Below, piece after piece: positions 28,947 to 30,701 of a stretch of DNA of 64,000 nt. Location of the stretch: assembly GCA_030324005.1 (NCBI GenBank), contig JARDVH010000163.1, positions 114,245,556-114,309,555 of the forward strand. Direction: 5' to 3'. A program made the position numbers and the translations under genes. The notes under the pieces were generated by a model. It saw only the letters and a list, made by a program, of their open reading frames with translations, ran no database searches and was not told where the DNA came from. The DNA comes from Negaprion brevirostris. Taxonomy: Eukaryota. Each line of letters opens with the position of its first letter. Position 1 is the first letter of the stretch.

Positions 28947-28960
28947 ATGATTAAAGTGAG
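28947..28960 (+). CDS. VGLL4: Probable alternative first coding mini-exon of VGLL4 (MIKV-R), splicing to exon 3
   Basis: ATG ATT AAA GTG AG|gttagt. Phase 2 joins exon 3 (G ACC AAA...) in frame to give MIKVRTKPVNG, matching my recollection of a short mammalian VGLL4 isoform starting MIKVR. Confidence 0.75.
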
Positions 28961-30701
28961 GTTAGTACCGAACCCTTCCATTCTATTTTGTTTTTAAAAC
29001 AGATGGTAGTTCCATGTTCAGCTGCAATTAATTTTAAAGTTTGAGTCAGTGTGTTCTGTAGAGGTAAAATTATTTGTTCAGCAGTGAACATCAATCTCCC
29101 TGCTGTACTATTAGCTCACAAGCAGTGGTGATTGGAGAATATATTGTGCTTGCTCCAGGCTCTAGGACAACAGACTTGAATCAGTGGAATTGGAATCACC
29201 AATAAACTCCTTGTACTGAGTGGCAATAATATTGGCAATCCTCAGTATAAACTTTCTGTATGCTATTCAGCTCTTGTGCCAAGTTGCAAGCTTTGATTAT
29301 ACACACACCAAGTTAAACTCTCCATTCTGCTATATTTTGAGGATTAAAGAAGAAAGCAGTACACGGTCAATCTATTCCTAGCTATTACTATACTAAAGAA
29401 ATGCAATATTGTAAACATTTTGTTCATTTTAGGCAATCAGAAAAATATACATAAAACCATGAAGATTTAGATTTAAAGGTTTAACTGCTAATTGATAAAT
29501 TAGCATGTTAAGCTCCAAGTGCAGAAATTGTTGATAACCCACCTTTTACTGTGTATGAGTGCAGAATGCGAACCCTGACTGGGCCCCCTTTAGAATTCGG
29601 AGGTCTCGTGTGCAAGGAAGAATACTGTACAATGCAAAACTAGCAGATGCAGCCTTCCTTGTGTTTTACCACTTTTTTTAAAAAAAGAGCAGCAGCACAG
29701 TAAATTAGCACAATTCCTGGTCTGTAAAGTGTTTTAAAACACTTTTTTTGTTGTTTTCCCTCCACAGTTGCATTCTGTTTTATTAGTACAATCATGATTA
29801 CTGTATGGTGTTAGACTGGGCACAAGTGTGAACAATATCCTAATCTGTGAGTGAAGTAATGGGTGAATAATAAAAATTGTGTGTGAAGTGTTTTCCATAT
29901 TAAATGCTGAAGCTTTACTCCATGTTCAGTCAGTGCCTGTGTCTCTATGACAGGCTGGTGTGATGTGTTTGAAGAGACCATATTGATGAGTGTGATGCTG
30001 GCATTCATAAAGTGAGGATCTTGTTTTACAGTAGCTTCTGTCATAAGGTGGGCCTGTTCGCCGCAGAGTAACTGAGATGCAGATGGCAGTTGCAAATAGG
30101 TTGGATATTTCTTTGGATTGAATTATTTTGTTCTCTTATTTTGCATGTGTTTTGTTTAAAGAGTTGAAGTATAACCTCGTGTTTATGGTGCTTGGTAATT
30201 TTCCTGTTTAATTAATTGTGAAGCATTTTGAGGATATGATCAATAATGCATGTTTTTTGTATTGTTGGGTGATGTGTGCTGTGGATCTGAAGTAAGATGG
30301 GTGGAATCAAGGTCTAGGGAACAAGAAGAGGGTTAACAATCAACATTAGGTGGCTCATTTGTAGTAGGTCTCAGGGAGTCATTGCATCACGTGATATGTA
30401 ACCATAATGATCCTTAATGGATTGTAAGAACAAAGAAGAGTACAGCACAGGAACATGCCCTTCGGCCCTCCAAGCCTGTGCTGATTGTGATGCCTGCCTA
30501 AACTAGAACCGTATACACAAAGCTAGCCCTTGACTCGAGGGCATTTCCATTGTATTTTCCCCTCTGCAAACTTGTTTAATTTCTTGCAAAATCAATTTCT
30601 TTTGATCAGGTAGAACAAATATGAATGTTAATATAATCTTGACTTGGTATTAAGCCAACATGTGAATGGGTGACTCTATCTTGAATGTCTAAATCAGTGA
30701 G

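Follow-up and report, generated by a model that had tools for sequence, protein, structure and literature searches.

The question raised by this locus is whether a short element in the second intron of vgll4, made of an ATG and a nearby splice donor, is the start of an alternative VGLL4 protein. The window analysed is a stretch of 64,000 nucleotides (64 kb) from the lemon shark, Negaprion brevirostris, and all positions refer to it unless a contig is named. An initial annotation had pointed to a 14-nt first coding exon, encoding MIKVR, that would be spliced to exon 3. We consider it very probable that the element forms the coding end of a vgll4 alternative first exon conserved from sharks to mammals, likely transcribed from an internal promoter and spliced to exon 3 to encode 211 aa.

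The vgll4 gene and the MIKVR element

The vgll4 gene lies on the + strand of the window. Its long form was obtained by joining five exons, all on the + strand, which gives 296 aa with no internal stop: the proximal first coding exon (6344-6425, MLLKKMDLLNY...); exon 2 (14449-14635), which carries the KRK basic motif at 14547-14555 and is skipped by the short form; exon 3 (34870-35086, with 75 homologues), whose acceptor is common to exon 2 and to the alternative exon; exon 4 (38558-38681), which carries the RxSVI motif (RPSVI, 38561-38575); and the last coding exon (45387-45667), which carries TDU1 at 45422-45448 and TDU2 at 45506-45532. The resulting protein is identical to a Heptranchias RefSeq protein at 278 of 296 residues and to a chimaera protein at 209 of 296. 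The Pfam VGLL4 profile (PF15245) recognised exon 2 with 66.2 bits, over profile positions 22-76, and exon 5 with 45.3 bits, both above the curated cut-off of 27. The window also contains 19 runs of N, and four short ORFs, at 57489-57794 (-), 58363-58965 (+), 61336-61614 (+) and 62375-62647 (-), resemble fragments of LINE reverse transcriptase.

A distal first exon of the METPLD type was found on the contig and strand of the window, about 65 kb 5' of its start, at contig positions 114180534-114180599, where it is 91% identical to the query and is the single match in the genome. Long VGLL4 isoforms with MLFMKMD and METPLD N-termini are likewise produced from alternative promoters and first exons of VGLL4, as described in the available text of PMC12922143 and PMC5481333, and both types of long-form N-terminus are present in the shark genome. 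The MIKVR exon does not amount to a new type of system. The long isoforms exchange a short tip at the N-terminus and retain exon 2, whereas the MIKVR form drops exon 2, which removes about 90 residues including KRK.

As first reported, positions 28947-28966 read ATGATTAAAGTGAG|GTTAGT, with a GTTAGT donor in phase 2. The 14 coding bases (28947-28960, + strand; M-I-K-V and two bases of R) are located in intron 2, which is about 20 kb long, and their junction to exons 3-5 gives 636 bases, that is 211 aa and a stop, with no internal stop. A single match to ATGATHAARGTGAGGT occurs in the window, and no other at up to two mismatches, a tolerance at which shuffled sequences give 0.37 matches; the pattern ATG-ATH-AAR-GTG-AG followed by a phase-2 donor and an in-frame junction to exon 3 is present in the shark. 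The region 28500-29100 is single-copy in its own genome, in a search that skips very common words. It was observed that intron 2 contains 10 ATGs located 10 codons or less from a phase-2 GT(A/G/T)AG donor. The bare ATG-donor anatomy is thus no rarer than chance predicts and alone proves little; judged from sequence comparison, what distinguishes the MIKVR element from the other ATG-donor candidates is its conservation.

MIKVR isoforms in sharks and amniotes

Homologue searches and cluster look-ups, three of each, yielded a set of 335 proteins, in which large clusters were sampled (for example 15 of 59 members of the main shark cluster, and 15 of 180 and 15 of 166 members of two mostly bird clusters). 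Among the matches listed, 29 of the 335 proteins start with MIKVR and 15 more hold MIKVR internally. Of these 29 starters, again among the matches listed, 22 are placental and 4 are shark sequences, and turtle, gecko and platypus contribute one each; the turtle sequence is common to several sea turtles, and the 4 shark sequences come from six species (Chiloscyllium plagiosum, Chiloscyllium punctatum, Rhincodon, Stegostoma, Hemiscyllium and Carcharodon). The four RefSeq shark sequences are 211 aa long, begin with MIKVRTKPVNGDF and are identical to the window model at 200-202 of 211 residues, in agreement with the proposed in-frame splice to exon 3. They are annotated as vgll4b isoforms (XP_043563876.1, XP_072438274.1, XP_020367382.1, XP_048403794.1, XP_060691501.1 and XP_041048212.1) and share with the window model the start, the junction, the length and the architecture; they differ from it in being computed models from other species. 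The shark records and most of the others are computed XP_ models rather than cloned cDNAs, and may not be mutually independent.

The mouse Vgll4 201-aa isoform is the curated NP_001398530.1 (isoform 4), which corresponds to variant X4, XM_006506014.4, in the available text of PMC9496954. Like the shark isoform, it starts with MIKVR joined to exon 3, lacks exon 2 and has both TDU motifs; it is 10 residues shorter and identical to the shark model at 147 of 211 positions. In an alignment of seven short forms and one long form, MIKVR was joined at the identical point. The N-termini of RefSeq isoforms, which the initial annotation had proposed as a check, therefore show the same MIKVR start and junction in sharks, turtles, gecko, platypus and placentals. 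The human isoform beginning with MIKVR that the initial annotation had suggested was not found among the fetched proteins, in which the two human records are a different 210-aa form.

When records were assigned to clades by hand, MIKVR was present, among the matches listed, in 4 of the 22 records from sharks and rays and 2 of the 8 from non-avian reptiles, and in none of the 68 bird, 35 amphibian, 34 ray-finned fish and 4 chimaera records. Conservation across jawed vertebrates, as originally suggested, thus holds for sharks, turtles, gecko, platypus and placentals and does not extend to the bird, amphibian, ray-finned fish and chimaera records listed. These gaps may reflect loss or absent annotation. 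Since the MIKVR exon is present in both sharks and amniotes, we infer that it originated in their last common ancestor. One bird model (P0038) and one skink model (P0278) begin with MIK and then diverge where an upstream donor would cut, a hint that the element may still exist in species without a model of the isoform. Short bird isoforms of 208-211 aa (P0097, P0098, P0100-P0104, P0106 and P0028) have other starts at the exon-3 junction (MWNVSYR, MWNFS.R, MLTPR), and another internal first exon may be in use in birds. The records P0240, P0329 and P0248, which comprise whale and sheep proteins of 553-555 aa and a related one named phosphatidate cytidylyltransferase, suggest read-through models from the neighbouring gene into VGLL4.

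The MIKVR isoform is already known: RefSeq lists it for sharks, for reptiles and for mammals, and it has been assayed once in mouse. The exon is thus not hidden from annotation. In the available text of PMC9496954, the MIKVR isoform is one of two exon-2-less variants and the less abundant of the two in heart: expression of X4 (201 aa) is minimal in P1 and P28 mouse heart, whereas the level of X3 (243 aa), the other variant without exon 2, exceeds that of variant 1. The same text reports that knocking out exon 2 in mouse has milder effects than knocking out the TDU exon, and credits this to the exon-2-less variants. For Xenopus vgll4, RACE gave only two first exons, and two promoters and two transcripts were described; two long human VGLL4 isoforms were described under hypoxia (excerpts of PMC12922143 and PMC5481333, respectively); the MIKVR exon is not mentioned in these excerpts, nor is the isoform in those of PMC9483813, PMC11257599, PMC13694279, PMC6812007 and PMC9970006. 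A full-text literature search for MIKVR returned unrelated papers only, and a search for VGLL4 isoforms, variants and first exons, which covered few subscription journals, gave among the matches listed no account of shark-mammal conservation or of isoform function. The VGLL4 literature, in the text available, thus presents either the two long N-termini only or the MIKVR variant as a minor heart transcript. The present comparison adds an evolutionary case for studying this isoform and a precise element to mutate.

DNA conservation, exon borders and competing explanations

The mouse X4 forward primer, as given in the available supplement of PMC9496954, matches positions 28941-28960 at 19 of 20 bases; its next best site in the window, on both strands, matches at 16 bases. 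The mammalian DNA compared here consists of these 20 primer bases. All 14 coding bases are identical between shark and mouse, and so are all three synonymous positions, which suggests that the constraint lies, at least in part, at the level of DNA or RNA and not of the peptide. The single difference is an A to G change at -3 of the ATG, where a purine is retained; a purine at this position favours initiation (Kozak context).

Conservation also extends upstream. The 69 bases 5' of the ATG (28878-28946, + strand) are a likely 5' UTR of the alternative exon: read in frame, these 23 codons give 13 of the 23 residues of the whale record P0159, compared with 7 for the next best among the 20,163 windows of intron 2, so that homology reaches 69 bases or more upstream of the ATG. 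Of the 15 records with internal MIKVR, 14 share 12 or 13 of the 23 residues with the shark upstream frame, and one shares 7. The upstream frame closes at 28845 in the shark and many of its differences from mammals are non-conservative; protein-coding use of these 69 bases is therefore less likely, and they are probably conserved untranslated sequence. Orthologous DNA was not found in metagenome contigs scanned with a gapped motif, as expected from a microbial collection.

The 14 nt are only the coding end of a longer exon; the initial description of a 14-nt exon holds for the number of coding bases and not for the exon itself. In mouse, X4 is listed with 2869 nt and variant 1 with 2824 nt, and X4 codes for 86 fewer residues (PMC9496954, table in the available text). 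Because X4 is the longer RNA despite its shorter coding sequence, the mouse exon would contain about 300 extra untranslated bases, rather than being a 14-base micro-exon, if the 3' ends agree.

The predicted donor (GTTAGT, 28961-28966, + strand) fits the consensus at 7 of 9 positions. Its computed pairing with the U1 end is -8.2 kcal/mol, a value that falls between the extremes of the gene's four other donors (-5.4 to -9.5 kcal/mol). A second possible donor, AAA|GTGAGG (28956-28961, + strand), lies 5 bases upstream with a computed U1 pairing of -5.1; its use would shift the frame and give a 16-aa ORF that ends in exon 3. The exon end thus carries two overlapping candidate cuts, at 28955/28956 and 28960/28961. 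On the 5' side, a six-codon out-of-frame upstream ORF (28934-28954, + strand) overlaps the MIKVR ATG and has its stop inside the exon, at 28952-28954. The letters of this stop are also in the mouse primer, and the shared stop may explain the identity at synonymous positions.

Neither a CpG island nor a canonical TATA box was detected upstream of the exon in the motif scan. The ratio of observed to expected CpG is 0.37 in 28480-28960, 0.13-0.26 in three flanking stretches of the intron, and 0.57 at the proximal first exon. Eight motif scans gave weak matches to a CRE-like word upstream (28499-28506) and, just 3' of the donor (29028-29048), to a MEF2-like word at 29028 and an AP-1-like word at 29042. 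Of 21 public runs listed with exon 3, 19 contain the stretch, and no RNA is on record among them. Of the contigs from 4 of these 21 runs, compared with 28520-29120, none covers the exon and one of 172 bases touches 29087-29120, which speaks neither for nor against the exon.

These features bear on other explanations of the locus. The element could be mainly conserved regulatory DNA, an intronic enhancer or weak promoter, from which annotation has captured a minor spliced RNA whose short protein is incidental. Conservation that includes synonymous positions and at least 69 upstream bases, with non-conservative changes in the read-through frame, is compatible with this explanation, as are the minimal expression of X4 in mouse heart (PMC9496954, available text), the overlapping out-of-frame ORF, which would reduce translation, and the weak AP-1-like and MEF2-like words. 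However, shark and mouse share the ATG, the frame, the phase-2 donor and the purine at -3, and MIKVR is invariant in the 44 of 44 records that hold it, these records having been selected by that string. We therefore regard a mainly regulatory function as improbable.

Slightly less probable again is that the sequence acts mainly as an internal cassette between exons 2 and 3, which would add about 29-39 residues to full-length VGLL4, or as a hybrid exon that serves in both positions. Exon-2 sequence does precede MIKVR in 7 of the 15 internal records (5 pig, 1 whale and 1 deer), and in the shark a possible acceptor AG at 28872-28873 (+ strand), preceded by 13 pyrimidines out of 17, would give an in-frame 87-base internal exon (28874-28960). 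Of the eight AG sites in the open upstream frame, only this one gives a length divisible by 3, yet one in-frame AG among eight is expected by chance. The inserts in the records are 32, 33, 34 and 39 residues long, so the acceptor is not fixed, and among the matches listed the cassette form is found in none of the 22 shark and ray records, compared with 4 that have the MIKVR start. Finally, the 10 candidates of intron 2, which is 20 kb long, could be invoked in favour of a chance ATG beside a cryptic donor, but this explanation is refuted by the orthologue evidence (the 19 of 20 primer bases, the 13 of 23 upstream residues shared with mammals and the annotated isoforms of six sharks) and has a negligible probability.

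Predicted product and proposed role of the short form

The alternative first exon, spliced to exon 3, would encode a protein that lacks the N-terminus of exons 1 and 2 and keeps both TDU motifs, as the initial annotation had proposed: KRK, encoded from 14547 in exon 2, is absent from the short form, and the TDU motifs are at residues 131 and 159. The RxSVI motif (RPSVI) is retained at residue 79, and there are 9 lysines in the short form compared with 14 in the long one. The shark short isoform P0076 scored 175 bits against PF15245 (cut-off 27) and matched the VGLL4 chain of PDB 4LN0 with an E value of 3.8e-27.

VGLL4 competes with YAP for TEAD, and the binding of TDU motifs to TEAD is a structurally solved case. 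With its TDU pair and RxSVI retained, the short form is predicted still to bind TEAD and IRF2BP2, and so would still compete with YAP for TEAD. The KRK cluster is presumably the nuclear signal of VGLL4; given its size of about 23 kDa and its nuclear partners, the short form could nevertheless enter the nucleus. The RxSVI motif, defined in PMC11608337, binds IRF2BP2, and in zebrafish Vgll4b the TDU2 motif carries the Tead-dependent activity and growth restraint, while nuclear location needs neither TDU motif (PMC13110368; available text of both). Literature searches gave no mapping of the VGLL4 nuclear signal to KRK and no VGLL4 result on N-terminal ubiquitin control, and no published demonstration of KRK as a working nuclear signal, or of the existence of the short protein, was found in the texts available.

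In the proposed mechanism, an internal promoter in intron 2 would produce, in the lemon shark, a transcript with a first exon that extends to 28960 and is spliced to 34870. Translation would begin at the ATG at 28947, the overlapping upstream ORF would probably damp output, and the product would compete with YAP for TEAD without the exon-2 N-terminus. Kept since the split between sharks and mammals, the short form is probably under selection. The most likely role, to which we give about even chances, is that of a low-level, separately regulated, TEAD-binding YAP competitor, probably damped by the upstream ORF and free of any control that the N-terminal 90 residues may exert over location or turnover.

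A more elaborate and rather unlikely possibility is that about 90 bases form a conserved control module, in which an internal promoter exon and translation metered by the upstream ORF deliver a KRK-less short VGLL4, the same sequence doubling as a cassette, to provide a distinct, regulated brake in the Hippo pathway. If so, the short form would be a brake with its own location or stability; it would have escaped notice, since neither exon-2 knockouts nor N-terminal reagents detect it, and it would possibly have been lost in birds, frogs and ray-finned fishes.
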